A DNA stretch of 39,294 nucleotides from a virus: UHGV virus genome UHGV-0210057. The stretch is one strand, 5' to 3'. The notes beneath the pieces were generated by a model. The model did no database searches. It had not been told where the DNA came from and was given only the letters and a program-made list of their open reading frames with translations. Made by a program: the position numbers and the translations under genes. Below, in pieces: positions 2,690 to 39,036 of this stretch. Position 1 is the stretch's first letter. Each line of letters opens with the position of its first letter.

Positions 2690-3022
2690 ATGAATCCTTA
2701 TATTTATCTTGGTGGTGCAATACTTGCAGAGGTCATTGGTACAACCTTAATGAAGTTTTCAGAAGGTTTTACACGGTTATGGCCATCTGTTGGTACAATT
2801 ATTTGTTATTGTGCATCATTCTGGTTATTAGCTCAGACGCTGGCTTATATTCCTACAGGGATTGCTTATGCTATCTGGTCAGGAGTCGGTATTGTCCTGA
2901 TTAGCTTACTATCATGGGGATTTTTCGGCCAACGGCTGGACCTGCCAGCTATTATAGGCATGATGTTGATTTGTGCCGGTGTGTTGGTTATTAATTTATT
3001 TTCACGAAGCACACCACATTAA
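2690..3022 (+). CDS. emrE: SMR-family multidrug efflux transporter EmrE
   Basis: 110 aa from MNPYIYLGGAILAEVIGTTLMKFSEGF, four predicted TM helices; same position as emrE in the DLP12 prophage; AT-rich relative to neighbours. Confidence 0.85.
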   Translation: MNPYIYLGGAILAEVIGTTLMKFSEGFTRLWPSVGTIICYCASFWLLAQTLAYIPTGIAYAIWSGVGIVLISLLSWGFFGQRLDLPAIIGMMLICAGVLVINLFSRSTPH

Positions 3023-3055
3023 AAATAATTTCTTTTGAATCGAGTGAAATAGGTT

Positions 3056-31207: not shown

Positions 31208-32401
31208 TTACTCAGCCTTCCCATCAAGCCATTCCGCCCACCACTGCATCATTTCTCTGCGCTTATCTAGATACTGAGCATGGTTGTAAATCCCGCGCAC
31301 AGATCCGCCGTTGGCATGTGCCAGTTGCACTTCAATGGCGTCGGCAGGCCATTCGTGCTCGTTCATAATCGTGCTGAATTCATGCCTGAATCCGTGACCG
31401 CTTTCCAGCCCCTCATAGCCGATTTGTTTGATCACAAGCAATACCGCGTTCTCGCAGATTGGTTTCTTCTTATCGTTGCGCCCGGCAAAAACAAACTCTG
31501 AGACTGGTTTGGTGATTGAGCTTAGCGTAGTAAGAAGTTCAACCACCTGGTCTGACATAGGAACCACATGAATTTTGCGTCCCTTCATCACACTGGCGTC
31601 GATGGTGATAATCCTGTTTTCAAAATCGACGTTCTTCCATTGCATGGAACGAAGCTCTTTCGTTCTTAGGGCTGTGTAGCGTAAGACTTTGGTCGCAATG
31701 AGCGATACGATACTTCCTGAAAATGTTGCCAGTGCTTTGTTGAATGCAGGGATCTGGTCTGCTGGAAGAAACGGGAAGTTCTTCTTGCGGTATCCTTTCA
31801 TGGCGTCTGCAAGGTCAGGTGCCGGGTTATATTTAGCCCTTCCGGTGACAATAGCGTAACGAAAAACCTCGCCGCATCTTCTGCGGGCTTTATTGGCTCG
31901 CTCCATTGCACCGCGATCTTCAAATCTGCGGATTACTTCCAGCAGTTGCATCGGCTCAATATCCTGAATCTCAAGGCCGCCGATGATGGGTAAAATGTCG
32001 TCATCAAACATTTTTGCAAGTTCATTTGCATAGCCTACTGACCAGACTTGCTTCTTGTGCTCGTACCATTCCTTGTAAATGGCGCTAAAGGAATTGTTGT
32101 TAGACGAAGCCTTTTTCGCCTTTACCGGATCGATGCCAACCGAGATGTCTTTCCTCGCGGTCCATGCTTTATCCCTTGCCTCCTGCAAAGTCATAAGCGG
32201 ATATTTTCCGACAGTCAGGATTTTCTCCTTACCGTCAATCTTGTAGCGAAGCTGCCATACCTTTTTCCCTGATACAGGGACATAAAGGTACAGGCCATTA
32301 CCATCGAGAAGGCGGTATGGTTTTTCTTTCGGCTTTGCTGCTTCAATCTGCTTAACGGTGAGCATGGGTAAAAATCCGGTGGGTAAAATTATTTTATCCA
32401 C
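31208..32401 (-). CDS. int: Tyrosine integrase, P4-type (N-terminal DUF4102-like arm-binding domain)
   Basis: 397 aa; N-terminal LTVKQIEAAKPKEKPYRLLDGNGLYLYV..GKKVWQLRY motif, C-terminal catalytic region (HGFRHEF...LAHA......Y). Confidence 0.9.
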   Translation of the reverse strand: MDKIILPTGFLPMLTVKQIEAAKPKEKPYRLLDGNGLYLYVPVSGKKVWQLRYKIDGKEKILTVGKYPLMTLQEARDKAWTARKDISVGIDPVKAKKASSNNNSFSAIYKEWYEHKKQVWSVGYANELAKMFDDDILPIIGGLEIQDIEPMQLLEVIRRFEDRGAMERANKARRRCGEVFRYAIVTGRAKYNPAPDLADAMKGYRKKNFPFLPADQIPAFNKALATFSGSIVSLIATKVLRYTALRTKELRSMQWKNVDFENRIITIDASVMKGRKIHVVPMSDQVVELLTTLSSITKPVSEFVFAGRNDKKKPICENAVLLVIKQIGYEGLESGHGFRHEFSTIMNEHEWPADAIEVQLAHANGGSVRGIYNHAQYLDKRREMMQWWAEWLDGKAE

Positions 32402-32526
32402 TTTTTACCCGTCATGGAGTGCGGCTGTCAACGATCTGACGCGAACCATTACGAACTGTTAATCTACGGAAGACTTGATATTCAGGGGATTTTACGGACT
32501 GGTACGGATGGGAGCGAACTGATAAA

Positions 32527-32541
32527 TGGTGTCCCCTGCAG
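32527..32541 (-). other. Candidate attP core resembling a tRNA 3' end (argW-like)
   Basis: Minus strand reads CTGCAGGGGACACCA (acceptor-stem 3' strand, discriminator and CCA), matching my recollection of the argW tRNA-Arg(CCU) 3' end; lies in the 213-bp gap between alpA and int. Confidence 0.5.
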
Positions 32542-32614
32542 ACATCTACTTGAAGCAGCAGGGGATTGATTGGAATGGTGTTTTTTAGATGTGAAAAATA
32601 TTTTACCCGCTATT

Positions 32615-32815
32615 TTACCCATTGGCGCGGCTTAAGAGCTTATTTTTGAACTCACAATGGTCACGATATAACCATCTTGCTCGCCCGTGGATAACTTTGG
32701 CTTTAGGCAGGTCGCCGGACTTAATCCGGTCATAGATGAAGGTTTTACCAAAGCCAGTATCAGCCATGATGAATTTCAAATCAACCAGGGAATCAGGCTG
32801 TAGTTCGTGTTGCAT
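32615..32815 (-). CDS. alpA: AlpA-family excisionase / transcriptional regulator
   Basis: 66 aa with HTH motif LKFIMADTGFGKTFIYDRIKSGDLPKAKVIHGRARW typical of AlpA/Xis; immediately upstream of int on the same strand. Confidence 0.8.
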   Translation of the reverse strand: MQHELQPDSLVDLKFIMADTGFGKTFIYDRIKSGDLPKAKVIHGRARWLYRDHCEFKNKLLSRANG

Positions 32816-32833
32816 GAGTGCTATCTCCGAATA

Positions 32834-32849
32834 GGGAATCGAACCTGCA
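32834..32849 (-). other. tRNA T-arm-like fragment (degenerate att-related repeat?)
   Basis: Minus strand reads TTGCAGGTTCGATTCC (T-loop consensus GGTTCGATTCC); the 3' half of the T-stem is not complementary, so it is not a functional tRNA. Confidence 0.35.
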
Positions 32850-32857
32850 AATCAGGC

Positions 32858-32880
32858 AATAAAAAACCGCATTGATGCGG
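32858..32880 (-). terminator. Intrinsic terminator separating the early-left operon from alpA-int
   Basis: CCGCA-TTGA-TGCGG hairpin, followed on the minus strand by TTTTTT. Confidence 0.5.
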
Positions 32881-32937
32881 CGATGGTAGGTCTGGATATC
32901 TTGAGAAATGAACTGGCCTCATCGAGTGTGAGGCGGG

Positions 32938-33282
32938 TTAGTCCTTGCGTAGCTCGCTGATTCTTCTGTAAGTCTCTGGTGCTTTGTTCCCGTACGTCTT
33001 CATTTCAGACTTCAACAGAGCAACGAGGGAATCCCATTCGTTGAGGATGCCTTTGAATGCCGGAACGCGCTTTGCAACCTTGTCGAATGAATCCCTGATT
33101 TCTGGAATCTGCTCGACAAGCGCAACGCATCGCCGGAAGTCTGCTGCGTCATGGGGAGCGCCGAAGTGATGACCATAGATATTCTTTTTCAGTCCACATG
33201 CGATTGAGGCAAGAGTTGCGCTACTGATGCCAACATCGCCAGTCGATTGCCATTTCAAAACCTTCATAGCCAAATCTGACAT
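32938..33282 (-). CDS. Hypothetical protein
   Basis: 114-aa ORF with GGAG RBS; preceded by a terminator hairpin (GCCGCC..GGCGG plus T7); no family recognised. Confidence 0.5.
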   Translation of the reverse strand: MSDLAMKVLKWQSTGDVGISSATLASIACGLKKNIYGHHFGAPHDAADFRRCVALVEQIPEIRDSFDKVAKRVPAFKGILNEWDSLVALLKSEMKTYGNKAPETYRRISELRKD

Positions 33283-33383
33283 TTCTTGTCTCCAATAAAA
33301 AAACCGCCATCAGGCGGCTTGGTGTTCTTTCAGTTCTTCAATTCGAATATTGGTTACATTGTTTTCATATATGAATAAATAAA

Positions 33384-33596
33384 TTAGCTTTTTTCGTTGC
33401 CTTCGCTTTCTTTATTAATTTTAACAAACTCGTTTTTACCACGCTCTCCAAATGCGTCTTTAGAGTCGTTGTATCCGCAATCGCAGCACACATAATCATC
33501 AGACCATCCACGCATTGTTTTTTCTTTTGCAATATTTCCAGAACCGCATTTTGGACAAGACATATCACTACCTCCAAAGCATGAGAAAGATGACAA
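33384..33596 (-). CDS. Small zinc-ribbon protein
   Basis: Two CxxC pairs (CPKCG ... CCDCG); start may be Met1 or Met12. Confidence 0.5.
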   Translation of the reverse strand: MSSFSCFGGSDMSCPKCGSGNIAKEKTMRGWSDDYVCCDCGYNDSKDAFGERGKNEFVKINKESEGNEKS

Positions 33597-33659
33597 CGTA
33601 ACATTGATTGGAGATTAACAATAGATTGCTGATGTAAAAGATATGTATAAGCTTAGCTA

Positions 33660-34307
33660 TCAAAGGGGAGGTTCTGGTAGTTGCATCCAGTCGGTTACAT
33701 TGCGACTCTGTGTTTCGAAAAATTCATCACCATTGCGGACAATATCGAAAAACTCTCCGTCTCGATATTGCGCATAAAGAACGAATGCGCCATCACATAA
33801 AATAATTACGTGCTGACCATCATCTGGCATTAGCTCACTACAGCTTATCCAACCATCCGGAGTTACCGGATAGTTGCCGGGTTCTTTAATGTGCAAACGA
33901 GGCTCACCATCTTTTGGTTCAGGCCACTGGCGCTCCATGTTGATCTTCAATTTATTTTCCATAGCAGCGGTAATTTCAGCATCACTGATACCAGCACGGC
34001 GCTGTGCATCCCACAACAGGAACTGCATATCAGCCCACTCGCTGAGATCGTCAGGTTCGGCTGCGGCTTCCAGAGCCTCTTTTGAGAGGTGTTTCAGTGG
34101 ACCAATGGGGCCAACGCAGCCAAATGTGGAGTCAGACCATTTGGCATGCTCGTGGCGAACCCGCTCGCGTTCCAGTGAGGCGAGAGCGATTTTAAATGCT
34201 GTAAGCATGTGTGCTTGATCGTTGTCGAGTCCGAATGGCATTTCATCTCGTGCTGACTCAATACTGGTAATCGTATTTTGTAGCCATTCCATGGTAAAAG
34301 TGCTCAT
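33660..34307 (-). CDS. DUF550/DUF551-type prophage protein
   Basis: 215 aa; C-terminal DUF551-like motif (DGWISCSELMPDDGQHVIIL.DGAFVLYAQY) as recalled from lambdoid prophage proteins. Confidence 0.6.
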   Translation of the reverse strand: MSTFTMEWLQNTITSIESARDEMPFGLDNDQAHMLTAFKIALASLERERVRHEHAKWSDSTFGCVGPIGPLKHLSKEALEAAAEPDDLSEWADMQFLLWDAQRRAGISDAEITAAMENKLKINMERQWPEPKDGEPRLHIKEPGNYPVTPDGWISCSELMPDDGQHVIILCDGAFVLYAQYRDGEFFDIVRNGDEFFETQSRNVTDWMQLPEPPL

Positions 34308-34675
34308 CGTAAAATATCCTCTATACTGGTAAGCCCTTCATTATTTAGCCAGATCATTGCGTCATCCGGCAACTTGCTGTCTGGTTTTGCGTTTTTGAGA
34401 GAGGAACTCAGTCGCTTAATCCACATTGTCAGCTCAGTAATGCGCCTGTGTTTGCCTTCCAGCTCAACGCGCAGCTTCCCTACCGTTAGTGCAATATCCT
34501 CGTTCTCCTGGTCGCGGCGTTTGACGTATTGCTGGTTTCTTTCCCGTTCATCCAGCAGTGCCAGCACAATCGATGGTGTTACCAGCTCATGGAAAAGGTC
34601 CGCGTCAAATCCCCAGTTGTCATGCATTGCCTGCTCTGCCGCTTCACGCAGTGCCTGAGAGTTAATTTCGCTCAC
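34304..34675 (-). CDS. Ea22/Ead-like early protein
   Basis: 123 aa; N-terminus MSEINSQALREAAEQAMHDNWGFDADLFHELVTPSIV resembles the ead/Ea22-like family as recalled. Confidence 0.6.
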   Translation of the reverse strand: MSEINSQALREAAEQAMHDNWGFDADLFHELVTPSIVLALLDERERNQQYVKRRDQENEDIALTVGKLRVELEGKHRRITELTMWIKRLSSSLKNAKPDSKLPDDAMIWLNNEGLTSIEDILR

Positions 34676-34893
34676 TTCGAACCTCTCTGTTTACTGATAA
34701 GCTCCAGATCCTCCTGGCAACTTGCACAAGTCTGACAACCCTGAACGATCAGGCGTCTTCGTTCATCTATCGGATCGCCACACTCACAACAATGAGTGGC
34801 AGATACAGCCTGGTGGTTCAGACGACGCATTTTTATTGCTGTATTGCGCTGTAATTCTTCAATTTCTGATGCTGAATCAATGAGGTCTGCCAT
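34672..34893 (-). CDS. TraR/DksA-family C4 zinc-finger protein
   Basis: 73 aa with CCECGDPIDERRRLIVQGCQTCASC (C4 zinc finger of TraR/DksA type). Confidence 0.7.
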   Translation of the reverse strand: MADLIDSASEIEELQRNTAIKMRRLNHQAVSATHCCECGDPIDERRRLIVQGCQTCASCQEDLELISKQRGSK

Positions 34894-37467: not shown

Positions 37468-37674
37468 TTAGTGATTCAGGCCTTTACCGCGTCCGTCGAG
37501 AAAAACTTCCACGAGCAAATCACGGGTATAAGTGCGCTCGATGCCGCGATGCAGATAAAGCCGTCCGCGTAAATTAGCTGATGCAGTCCAGGTACCATCT
37601 TTGTGTTTGACCAGCATTCCTGGCATGACCGCGCCGCGATTAACGGTCTGCGTTCCGTAATGTTGATGAACCAT
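37468..37674 (-). CDS. kil: Kil-like protein (Rac KilR-like FtsZ inhibitor)
   Basis: 68 aa from MVHQHYGTQ...; strong CAGGAG RBS 5-6 nt before this ATG; pattern (H.YGT......V.PG..V.H..G...ASAN..GR.LY.......T.D.LVEVFL.GRG) resembles KilR as recalled; the in-frame upstream extension to 37758 has only a weak RBS. Confidence 0.6.
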   Translation of the reverse strand: MVHQHYGTQTVNRGAVMPGMLVKHKDGTWTASANLRGRLYLHRGIERTYTRDLLVEVFLDGRGKGLNH

Positions 37675-37945
37675 AAAAACTCCTGCCCGTAAGCTGGGCT
37701 GCTGAACATATAGAGACTTCTGCGCGTATTCAGGCGGTGGATGGCCGCCGGTTGCCATAACTAAGCCGCCTCGTTGAAGCGACTAAGGTATGAAATGTTG
37801 AGTTGATTTCAGCTGGTCACACCGACGTTCACGCGTCCGTTTCACCCCTCGCACTCCCCGAAGCCTGCTGAAATTCAAACTGCGGATCTAAGCGGTCATC
37901 GCAACGGTGAATCAGGTGGTTGCCGTATCGTTGTGTTGTTGCGAT
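37675..37945 (-). promoter_or_regulatory. Long (about 270 nt) untranslated, potentially structured PL leader; no N gene
   Basis: No RBS-associated ORF between PL and kil; 9-bp perfect inverted repeat CATCGCAAC/GTTGCGATG (plus coordinates 37897-37905 and 37938-37946) and an 8-bp inverted repeat (37806-37813 / 37867-37874) enclosing GC-rich sub-stems. Confidence 0.4.
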
Positions 37946-37951
37946 GAACTT

Positions 37952-38030
37952 ATTTAAAACTATAGTTGTTTTATCGTCAACAACAAAAGTTGTTTTATTG
38001 GTTGTTTTAGATATAACTGGTTGTATTTAG
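37952..38030 (-). promoter_or_regulatory. PL promoter with OL operators
   Basis: On the minus strand TTGACG-17 bp-TTAAAT, parallel to PR (TTGACT-17 bp-TAATCT); repeated GTTGTT/AACAAC operator half-sites. Confidence 0.5.
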
Positions 38031-38120
38031 GATGGATTTATTTTGTGACTTGAATCGCATAGCGATAACTGAAGCGAGGTTATGGTGGTTTTTTTAACGG
38101 TGTGTGTGATGAGGGGAGGG

Positions 38121-38148
38121 CAAAAGAAAACCCGGCACGGTGACCGGG
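38121..38148 (-). terminator. Intrinsic terminator downstream of cI
   Basis: CCCGG-CACGGTGA-CCGGG hairpin followed on the minus strand by TTTTCTTTT. Confidence 0.5.
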
Positions 38149-38269
38149 ATTCTTACGCCGTTAGGTAAAGATATTATTGCGGTGGCTTAATATTACTACC
38201 TAGAGCAAAGATAGGAATTAGTTCTTTACTGAATGAGCACAATGCCCAGTTGATAATTTTTAATTGGTA

Positions 38270-38959
38270 CTACCCATGCTTCCTATATGTCTGCGGCATG
38301 CTCCCAATAACCTTACCGAAGATGAACACCCGGTTCATCTCGTCTTTCTCGATCGGGTCCCACGGTGAGTAGCTTTTGTTATCAGAGATGACCAGCAGCT
38401 TATCCTTCATCATTTGCAGGCGCTTTACATGGGCTGTGTCGTCGTACAGAAACGCATAGATACCATCACCGTCGAAAGATTTAACTGTGATATCAACGAA
38501 CAGCAGATCACCTGGTTCGATCGTTCCTGACATGCTGTCACCACGCACGTTAATGATGCGGATATTTTCCGCCTTCCTACCATCGAACATGTGACGAGCA
38601 TCGTCAAACGAGTACTCAACCGAGCGTAGAACTTCTACAAACTCACGGTTGATGACTCCCGGCCCAGCACTGACTTCTATATCAAGAACGTCAATCTTAA
38701 AGTATTTGGAATGGCTGACAGTTGATAGTATTGGTTGCACTGTACTGTCTGACATATTTCCAACGCCAGAAGATAACCATTCTGCGCGCACACCCAAAGC
38801 GTTCGCGATCTCCACGATTTTAGTTGTTTGGTTAGCTTTCCCTGTTTCGATTTTCTGAATAGCAGCTTGGCTAACCCCGACCAAATCCCCAAGCGCCTTT
38901 TGTGTAAGGCCTCGCGCTAATCTGGCTTCTTTAAGTCTTTCTGAGAGTGTTGTTTTCAT
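38270..38959 (-). CDS. cI: CI-type prophage repressor (HTH-XRE plus S24 LexA-like peptidase domain)
   Basis: 229 aa from MKTTLSERLKEARLARGLTQKALGDLVGVSQAAIQKIETGK (HTH); C-terminal S24 autocleavage motifs (VRGDSM ... GD.L.VD ... K.L); divergent from cro. Confidence 0.85.
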   Translation of the reverse strand: MKTTLSERLKEARLARGLTQKALGDLVGVSQAAIQKIETGKANQTTKIVEIANALGVRAEWLSSGVGNMSDSTVQPILSTVSHSKYFKIDVLDIEVSAGPGVINREFVEVLRSVEYSFDDARHMFDGRKAENIRIINVRGDSMSGTIEPGDLLFVDITVKSFDGDGIYAFLYDDTAHVKRLQMMKDKLLVISDNKSYSPWDPIEKDEMNRVFIFGKVIGSMPQTYRKHG

Positions 38960-39000
38960 AGTCCAAATGTACAACCAAGGTTTTATTCCATCAAACGAAA

Positions 39001-39036
39001 ATGGTTGTTGACTAAAAACAACCATAGTTTTAATCT
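39001..39036 (+). promoter_or_regulatory. OR operator palindrome overlapping the PR promoter
   Basis: Perfect 9-7-9 palindrome ATGGTTGTT-GACTAAA-AACAACCAT at 39001-39025; -35 TTGACT (39008-39013), 17-bp spacer, -10 TAATCT (39031-39036); GGAGG RBS before the cro ATG at 39064. Confidence 0.6.

Follow-up and report, generated by a model that had tools for sequence, protein, structure and literature searches.

eaG and orf114, two catalogued accessory genes upstream of the excisionase gene of a P22-like coliphage

Between the excisionase gene and the early-left accessory genes of the virus genome UHGV-0210057 lie two small genes with hairpins beside them. What are these genes, what kind of site do they occupy, and what might their products do? 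We address these questions for the window, by which we mean the whole stretch of 39,294 nucleotides that was analysed. The window phage is a P22/Sf6/HK620-like podophage of E. coli, whose late genes resemble those of Sf6, IME10 and N7 and whose early-left genes resemble those of lambdoid coliphages. A zinc-ribbon gene (eaG) and a gene for a protein of 114 residues (orf114), both on the minus strand, are the final two genes of its leftward early (PL) operon, just ahead of the module for excision and integration. Transcription passes from exo and bet through several small ORFs to a DksA/TraR-like gene, and at its promoter-distal end through eaG, a hairpin, orf114, another hairpin, excisionase and integrase:

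34672-34893, DksA/TraR-like protein
34304-34675, minus strand, Ead/Ea22-like protein, next after the DksA/TraR-like gene
33660-34307, minus strand, dATP/dGTP-pyrophosphohydrolase and DUF551 protein, directly upstream of the zinc-ribbon ORF
33384-33563, minus strand, eaG, 59-aa zinc-ribbon protein, GGAGG 7-8 nt upstream of the ATG at 33563
33298-33357, minus strand, 60-bp linker with a hairpin
33297-33320, minus strand, predicted intrinsic terminator 1, stem 33320-33301, AAGCCGCC-TGAT-GGCGGTTT then T7, T-tract to 33297
32938-33282, minus strand, orf114, 114-aa all-alpha protein of PHROG 1229, GGAG 7 nt upstream of the ATG
32885-32967, minus strand, 3' flank of the orf114 cassette, with a hairpin at 32916-32934
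32861-32881, minus strand, predicted intrinsic terminator 2, stem 32881-32866, GCCGC-ATCAAT-GCGG then T6, T-tract to 32861
32847-32859, minus strand, putative CII box of the int/xis promoter pI, TTGCCTGATTTGC, assigned by homology to the annotated HK620 site
32615-32815, minus strand, torI-type excisionase (RefSeq TorI; PHROG 66 excisionase), downstream neighbour of orf114
31208-32401, IntS-type integrase, following torI in the gene order

The HK620 record locates attP between torI and int, and in an E. coli prophage that shares the torI/int module, torI is the terminal gene and adjoins host DNA. Since torI and int are adjacent in the window, as they are around the HK620 attP, the window is in the phage configuration, torI-attP-int.

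Identity of the two genes

The zinc-ribbon ORF is, by profile match and alignment, EaG of P22 and HkaD of HK620, family PHROG 2945 (E 3.9e-31; RefSeq name 'Eag protein'), a gene whose sequence and name date back decades. Over residues 1-59 the protein is 94.9% identical to P22 EaG and 98.3% identical to HkaD, with one to three substitutions that affect residue 22 or the C-terminal tail and amount to nothing substantive. It shares with both copies its ribosome-binding site, its map position in the PL operon and its downstream hairpin linker, and the DNA from the gene through that hairpin is 97-99% identical to P22 and HK620 over 308-325 bp. An intact 59-aa ORF with a strong ribosome-binding site is also found in P22, HK620, Sf101 and 327 E. 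coli genomes, and 329 of 5,426 complete E. coli genomes carry eaG. In the predicted structure (AF2), residues 1-32 form a zinc-ribbon hairpin (pLDDT about 80) and residues 33-42 a helix, after which comes a disordered, Lys/Glu-rich C-terminal tail. The Cys zinc ligands are invariant among the copies compared, and pairs of copies differ at six sites at most, every change sparing the zinc ribbon; because the copies are this conserved, selection on EaG is not measurable. Pfam and NCBIfam gave no match above cut-off, with generic zinc-ribbon matches below threshold only, and a PDB sequence search with EaG returned chance matches only. Tables for P22-type genomes give the function of EaG as 'unknown' (PMC4837284).

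The protein encoded by orf114 aligns over residues 1-114 with profile positions 1-113 of 116 in PHROG 1229 (E 1.8e-51) and is, on that profile match, a full-length member of the family. Phage EC.P3 encodes the very same protein (100% identity), and mEp043, mEp234 and Stx phages encode proteins that match it at 97-98% identity; 963 of 5,426 complete E. coli genomes (18%) carry the gene, in up to four copies and including the Stx prophages of O157:H7. An exhaustive profile search found relatives in 2,366 cluster representatives at E<=1e-3, extending over Enterobacterales, Vibrio, Burkholderia, Pseudomonas, Mannheimia and actinophages, with one giant-virus match, and homologues down to 30% identity occur in Vibrio, Burkholderia and actinophages. 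A search for related loci with a close orf114 alignment gave three near-identical ones, and no distant homologue was found in Mu, lambda, Rac, HK620 or P22. Every source name in the family is 'hypothetical protein'. The gene is under strong purifying selection, with dN/dS of 0.06-0.19 among five E. coli and phage copies.

What kind of protein is this? AF2 produced a model of seven helices at a pLDDT of 92.9 from only nine sequences. Seven residues are invariant in 48 diverse members (S20, P43, D45, D48, R51, C52 and W83) and six are nearly so (W11, G18, S21, G30, L55 and P60); orf114 carries the resulting family motif, W..G..G.SS.T ... P.D..D..RC..L....PE ... W. The invariant residues lie mostly at helix N-termini (N-caps) and in helix 3, which reads Asp-x-x-Asp-x-x-Arg-Cys. 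Isoelectric points within the family range from 4.6 to 9.8, and this lack of a conserved net charge speaks against a general role in nucleic-acid binding or DNA mimicry. A helix-turn-helix regulator was considered and set aside: Pfam, NCBIfam and PADLOC gave no match for orf114, no HTH or other Pfam family was detected in the 48 diverse members, and no positive charge is conserved. A PDB sequence search with two orf114 profiles (A1 and A2) returned chance matches only. Domain fusions offered little guidance to function, with two exceptions. One metagenomic CCA-adding enzyme, on a single 1.9-kb contig, has an orf114 domain at its C-terminus, and in one protein the domain is duplicated in tandem; for the remaining partners, Pfam, PHROG and PDB gave no match, and the MazG-like impression given by one of them was not supported on checking. 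Apparent E. coli fusions to PF04447, ERF, Kil and Ea22 proved to be chimeras with adjacent genes, produced by recombination or frameshift.

These results modify the initial annotation in several respects. Both ORFs exist on the minus strand where it had placed them, but it had listed the zinc-ribbon ORF too long: the 70-aa form beginning at a TTG (33384-33596) gives way to the ATG at 33563, which P22, HK620, Sf101 and RefSeq all use and which the ribosome-binding site supports. The two CxxC pairs that it had seen in this protein are real (C3-x-x-C6 and C26-x-x-C29). Its statement that neither ORF belongs to a recognisable family holds for the Pfam and NCBIfam cut-offs but not for PHROG, and the ORFs are not novel, given EaG/HkaD on one side and, on the other, an identical EC.P3 protein and a gene found in 18% of E. 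coli genomes. Codon-level conservation, whose absence it had named as a ground for refutation, is evident for orf114 in the dN/dS values and in the reach of its homologues. Both genes were already catalogued in many annotated genomes, and their assignment takes two 'unknown ORFs' off the list of novel features. The orf114 family is among the larger phage protein families without a curated model, structure or phenotype, and as the gene is present in close to one in five complete E. coli genomes, any function found for it would annotate thousands of genes. Our literature search on EaG, PHROG 1229 and the mEp phages found no functional data. What is new is the anatomy of the slot and not the genes themselves.

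Anatomy of the slot between terminator and pI

Both hairpins are predicted intrinsic terminators on the gene strand, with stems of 6-8 bp that contain 4-5 GC pairs and are followed by T6-T7; terminator-like sites number seven in 2 kb, compared with 1.5 +/- 1.4 in shuffled sequence. The initial annotation had correctly recognised both and had placed the second (32858-32880) well, whereas its position for the first (33311-33335) is about 10-15 nt off and overlaps the hairpin in part. Terminator 1 lies within a 60-bp linker (33298-33357) that is 100% identical by blastn to lambda 29106-29165, comprising the 3' end of orf55 (lambdap35) and a hairpin, and the P22 record L06296 has a note to the same effect. 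The hairpin of terminator 1 also immediately precedes pI or eaC in HK620, P22 and lambda; in the P22 record it is marked, on the opposite strand, as terminator of the antisense aI RNA. An Rfam search around the hairpins found no small RNA. By alignment, the predicted terminators belong to a conserved terminator/pI linker that is common to lambda, HK620 and P22.

How does orf114 fit into this linker? In HK620, the eaG terminator leads at once to an annotated cII site and pI promoter and then to torI, so that the sequence across the joint reads ...GCCGCCTGATGGCGGTTTTTTATTG|CCTGATTTGC...ATG. The lambda arrangement is similar: the 60-bp linker ends orf55 and abuts the pI CII box TTGCGTGTAATTGC, with the hairpin followed by TTGC-N6-TTGC. 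In the window, the T-tract of terminator 1 is instead followed by GGAGACAAGAAATG, which is the start of orf114 with its Shine-Dalgarno sequence. Beyond the orf114 stop comes a stretch that resembles P22 eaC/xis (32885-32967, 83% identical by blastn to the junction between the end of eaC and the start of xis), then the second hairpin GCCGCATCAATGCGGTTTTTTATTG, after which homology to HK620 resumes at CCTGATTTGC. The CII box region is 96% identical to HK620, whose record annotates both the cII site and a 'phage integration' promoter, and it was also found by pattern match. In coordinates, window 33600-33293 matches HK620 2464-2770 and window 32881-32600 matches HK620 2746-3027, and the single 25-bp HK620 hairpin (2746-2770) aligns with both window hairpins, terminator 2 being an imperfect direct repeat of terminator 1. 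As one HK620 hairpin corresponds to two window copies, orf114 constitutes a cassette of about 436 bp between imperfect direct repeats. The alignments show that this cassette sits exactly between the hairpin terminator and pI, which are contiguous in HK620 and lambda, and that its second hairpin restores the terminator/pI joint.

P22 holds a different gene in the same slot. Its eaC lies between the eaG terminator and xis, and the 5' junction is identical through ATGTCAG (hairpin, GGAGACAATAAATGTCAG; that is, hairpin, GGAGACAA-AA, ATG TCA G), while the 3' flank is related, with 84 bp of homology. P22 EaC (211 aa) is, however, twice as long as orf114 and uncharacterised, an HMM search against the P22 early-left ORFs revealed no similarity to orf114, and the P22 slot is overlapped by the antisense aI RNA. 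The occurrence of eaC in this slot behind the same junction indicates that the conserved linkers act as recombination joints for swapping cargo genes. An E. coli prophage with a P22-type int at thrW has the order eaG-orf114-xis, with orf114 in place of eaC. Other E. coli prophages lose their similarity to the window at 32904 or 32862 on the xis side of orf114 and at 33303 or 33357 upstream of it, and flanking hairpins of differing sequence still bracket orf114 in all variants examined; a Mannheimia phage has the same layout of terminator, gene, terminator, xis and int. Lambda orf55/Ea8.5 and Rac RcbA likewise lie immediately upstream of xis at the promoter-distal end of the PL operon, but neither has sequence similarity to orf114 or EaG. 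The terminator/pI linker of lambda, P22, HK620 and the window phage is a concrete case of a regulatory junction that serves as a cargo swap point, and its anatomy predicts which cargo genes appear only together with Xis on antiterminated transcripts.

Eight E. coli prophages were sampled, and in every one orf114 directly precedes xis, across four int/xis types (TorI/IntS, the sbcB-site integrase, lambda-type, and P22-type at thrW), and its upstream neighbour is variously EaG, DUF551, a 55-aa ORF, ASCH, DUF4222, Abc2 or IS4. Our analysis shows eaG and orf114 to be two independently mobile accessory genes and not a pair.

Is orf114 then an autonomous moron? It resembles one in being a single cargo gene between two conserved genes, with a 3' terminator (32881-32866, T6) and sharp breaks in homology. 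It differs in that no promoter was found for it and a terminator lies directly upstream: the final base of the terminator 1 stem (33304) and the orf114 ATG are only 15 nt apart, an interval filled by the T-tract, ATT, GGAG and a 7-nt spacer, and the T-tract ends 3 nt before GGAG. A scan of 32400-34400 found no sigma-70-like promoter, as far as a simple consensus search can tell, which weak or activator-dependent promoters could escape. The earlier view that each gene has a terminator of its own is not borne out if it is taken to mean an autonomous moron, for there is no promoter-like site and the upstream T-tract runs into the orf114 Shine-Dalgarno sequence. The lack of a promoter-like site, combined with a strong terminator abutting the ribosome-binding site, suggests that orf114 is made only from PL transcripts that read through the terminators.

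Possible roles of orf114 and EaG

The explanation that we favour overall, and consider somewhat more probable than all others combined, comprises independent accessory genes, an orf114 cassette at the terminator/pI joint, expression by read-through, and products that act as a binder (orf114) and a Lar-type adaptor (EaG). We envision, tentatively, that the orf114 protein would bind a conserved protein of the host or the phage stoichiometrically while the prophage is being induced or the phage grows lytically, serving host takeover or counter-defence, or else some task connected with excision; that it is an enzyme or binds DNA is less likely. A binder for host takeover or counter-defence is quite possible, if short of an even chance, a factor linked to excision or induction is distinctly less probable, and a small-ligand binder or enzyme is less probable still; functions of other kinds make up the remainder. 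EaG most likely is a small zinc-ribbon adaptor of Lar type that would act on the host DNA-processing or restriction machinery, an assignment that we again make with little confidence.

How far does the likeness between EaG and Lar/RalR reach? Both are small (about 60 aa) CPxCG...CxxC zinc-ribbon proteins whose genes stand, in a lambdoid setting, between xis and those for recombination, and the Rac gene order int-xis-rcbA-ralR-recT places lar/ralR in a map position equivalent to that of eaG. The second-best Pfam match of EaG is PF14354 (Lar_restr_allev; E 1.8e-4), a precomputed Pfam table assigns PF14354 to many members of the EaG cluster, blastp aligns EaG with K-12 RalR at 28% identity over 54 aa (E 0.003), and hhalign with Lar gives E 1.6e-4. 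These observations would be expected if EaG were a functional Lar/RalR-type protein that, like Lar/RalR of Rac, relieved type I restriction or was toxic as a DNase. We nevertheless regard this as unlikely. The Pfam score of 22.1 bits falls short of the gathering cut-off of 28.6 bits, the hhalign probability is 51%, and most of the likeness resides in a generic CPxCG...CxxC ribbon that also matches those of HVO_2753, S27ae and TFIIB. Moreover, EaG lacks the W-N-x-R helix, whose W50 is invariant in four aligned Lar sequences, and has K-I-N-K-E in its place, and an Rfam search found no RalA-like antisense antitoxin sRNA near eaG. EaG may work like Lar, but it falls short of two defining features of the Lar family, and membership is not demonstrable.

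Because orf114 stays beside xis whatever the int/xis type, it could conceivably serve excision or integration itself, as an accessory factor that contributes to Xis/Int directionality, protects the excised circle or couples excision to induction. Its invariable place before xis in the eight E. coli prophages fits this idea, as does the position of distant homologues (30-40% identity), which are found ahead of int, at a distance of 0-2 small genes, in Mannheimia, Burkholderia, Pseudomonas (two contexts) and two metagenomic temperate phages; it would also be co-expressed with xis on read-through transcripts, and not from pI. A single protein would, however, have to work with Xis and Int proteins of unrelated families, HK620 and lambda lack it, and its position may be due to nothing more than frequent recombination at the conserved linker. 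Several family members have no integrase within 5 kb, namely those of a Mu-like Vibrio prophage (where the homologue lies in the semi-essential early region), the linear-plasmid prophage PY54, Carvaje, Vibrio phage D53 and three metagenomic contigs, a set that includes apparently virulent phages; such homologues argue against an obligatory role in excision, and we consider an excision factor rather improbable. No more probable is a related reading, by which orf114 would be a structurally unprecedented domain tied to prophage induction or excision and acting on a conserved host component; it might, for example, be made only on antiterminated transcripts together with Xis, and it would act as the prophage leaves the chromosome.

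Could one or both genes instead counteract host immunity, as anti-restriction, anti-CRISPR or other antagonists? Their location is suggestive, in a variable early-left region near genes for DksA/TraR-like, Ea22-like and dATP/dGTP pyrophosphohydrolase proteins and with upstream neighbours that turn over rapidly. Both proteins are small, expressed early and devoid of an enzymatic signature, and orf114 is spread very widely over phage types. This breadth also speaks against the idea, since the Mu-like, lambdoid, Vibrio and actinobacterial phages concerned infect hosts that share few defence systems, and a dN/dS of about 0.07 together with a core that is invariant across phyla resembles a housekeeping phage function and not an arms-race protein. 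Neither sequence was found in the part of the supplementary data of one large accessory-gene screen that was available to us, and our searches found no anti-defence annotation, PADLOC match or characterised homologue for either protein. The anti-restriction and anti-CRISPR variants are speculation, with the sub-threshold likeness of EaG to Lar/RalR as their sole support, and we judge counter-defence as a whole to be unlikely. Scarcely credible, finally, is the notion that the ORFs are non-functional remnants or annotation artefacts in a mosaic joint. The spacers do hold fossils, in the form of the lambda orf55 3' end (33298-33357) and the P22 eaC/xis junction (32885-32967), and several database 'EaG' entries are frameshift chimeras with an overlapping reading frame. 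Yet the dN/dS of orf114, its homologues in thousands of clusters and the confident fold effectively refute this reading for orf114, and the intact EaG ORF with its strong ribosome-binding site and zinc ligands invariant in P22, HK620, Sf101 and E. coli genomes speaks against it for eaG.

Read-through and the PL leader

How might orf114 be expressed under the favoured explanation, with a terminator directly before it? Drawing on the sequence and on the established model of the lambda/P22 PL operon, we infer an antiterminated delayed-early mode, in which orf114 would be made together with xis during lytic growth or induction; antitermination is assumed here. CII-dependent transcription from pI, which belongs to the establishment of lysogeny, should not yield orf114, because pI lies downstream of the gene. 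The first gene of the PL operon is kil (37468-37758, PHROG 294), and no N/gp24-type gene was found between it and cI (38270-39025). Read-through would consequently need a put-like RNA or another mechanism. HK022 uses a promoter-proximal RNA, putL, instead of N (PMC9378689). Comparison of the PL leader with an 8-kb stretch of HK022 (22-30 kb), which may not contain putL, disclosed no put-like similarity, and the leader has no Rfam match and no second copy within the window. A putL-like antitermination by the PL leader is a lead only.

The PL region was also aligned among five related phages. Its promoter/operator part varies with immunity type, and the leader of about 185 nt that follows (about 37950-37760) shows hardly any variation and folds into a series of stem-loops, the first of them close to the likely transcription start.

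Sequence remnants flanking the orf114 cassette

On both sides of orf114 (the 114-aa ORF of PHROG 1229), the window retains short segments that resemble gene ends of other lambdoid phages.

33298-33357: 3' end of lambda orf55 (…VTNIRIEELKEHQAA, stop) and its hairpin; 60 bp, 100% identical to lambda 29106-29165
32885-32967: segment resembling the P22 eaC-end/xis-start junction; final 30 nt of orf114 and the next 53 nt, 83% identity

This makes the spacer between orf114 and eaG, the 59-aa zinc-ribbon gene, the fossil of an orf55-like gene end; in lambda, the same hairpin adjoins the CII box of pI. The P22-like segment, which contains a hairpin with a poor T-tail (32916-32934), is, judging from this resemblance, a relic indicating that the orf114-bearing insert formerly adjoined a P22-type xis.

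Coding content around eaG and relatives of orf114

33365-33604, minus: 79-aa alternative-frame ORF overlapping eaG
33660-34307, minus: 215-aa protein in which DUF551 is fused to a dATP/dGTP pyrophosphohydrolase domain (PF04447)

The orf55-like tail is reached by read-through of one of the two frames in the eaG region. Five database proteins listed as EaG homologues (P0304, P0309, P0314, P0317 and P0318) are chimeras that alternate between the eaG frame and the overlapping one, and such frame switching probably arises from frameshift errors or pseudogenes. Within the neighbouring fusion gene, a mosaic homology break lies at about 33850-33870, and combinations of its two domains vary among related prophages.

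A positional parallel to orf114 and EaG is found in the Rac prophage of E. coli K-12 (locus L019), where the slot between xis and recT contains the following genes.

L019, 2532-2928: rcbA and lar/ralR

There, lar/ralR encodes a zinc-ribbon DNase toxin with an antisense sRNA, RalA; no homology of the Rac slot genes to orf114 was detectable. Orf114-type domains do occur in larger proteins: P0068 (333 aa) carries two in tandem, and a CCA-adding enzyme (PolyA_pol, RNA-binding and HD domains) bears one at its C terminus, a single case on a 1.9-kb metagenomic contig (L002, SRR30503383_221729, 37-1713).

A conserved leader between cI and kil

38270-39025: cI
37760-38130, minus: ORF-free stretch
37468-37758: kil, the first gene of the PL operon

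No N/gp24-type antiterminator gene is present between cI and kil. The entire ORF-free stretch is 83-99% identical across about 16 lambdoid coliphages; its promoter/operator part differs by immunity type, and the leader of about 185 nt that lies 3' of this part (about 37950-37760) is near-invariant in an alignment of five phages. Consecutive stem-loops are predicted in the leader, the z score of -3.9 being that of the wider fold 37760-38270. The leader had no Rfam match, and no sequence similarity to it was found in an 8-kb stretch of HK022 (22-30 kb) that may or may not include putL. The leader may act in cis as a put-like antiterminator RNA.

The torI-int junction

The excisionase gene torI adjoins int with an HK620-type attP in between (32402-32815, compared with loci L001 and L010), so the window represents the excised phage form. 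Once integrated, the prophage has orf114 and torI as the final two genes at one end, beside the host csc/dsd genes. Within int but on its complementary strand, Rfam gives a weak hit to the Hfq-binding sRNA isrK (31803-31893, plus; E 0.24, 20.9 bits where the cut-off is 50), which is most likely due to chance.
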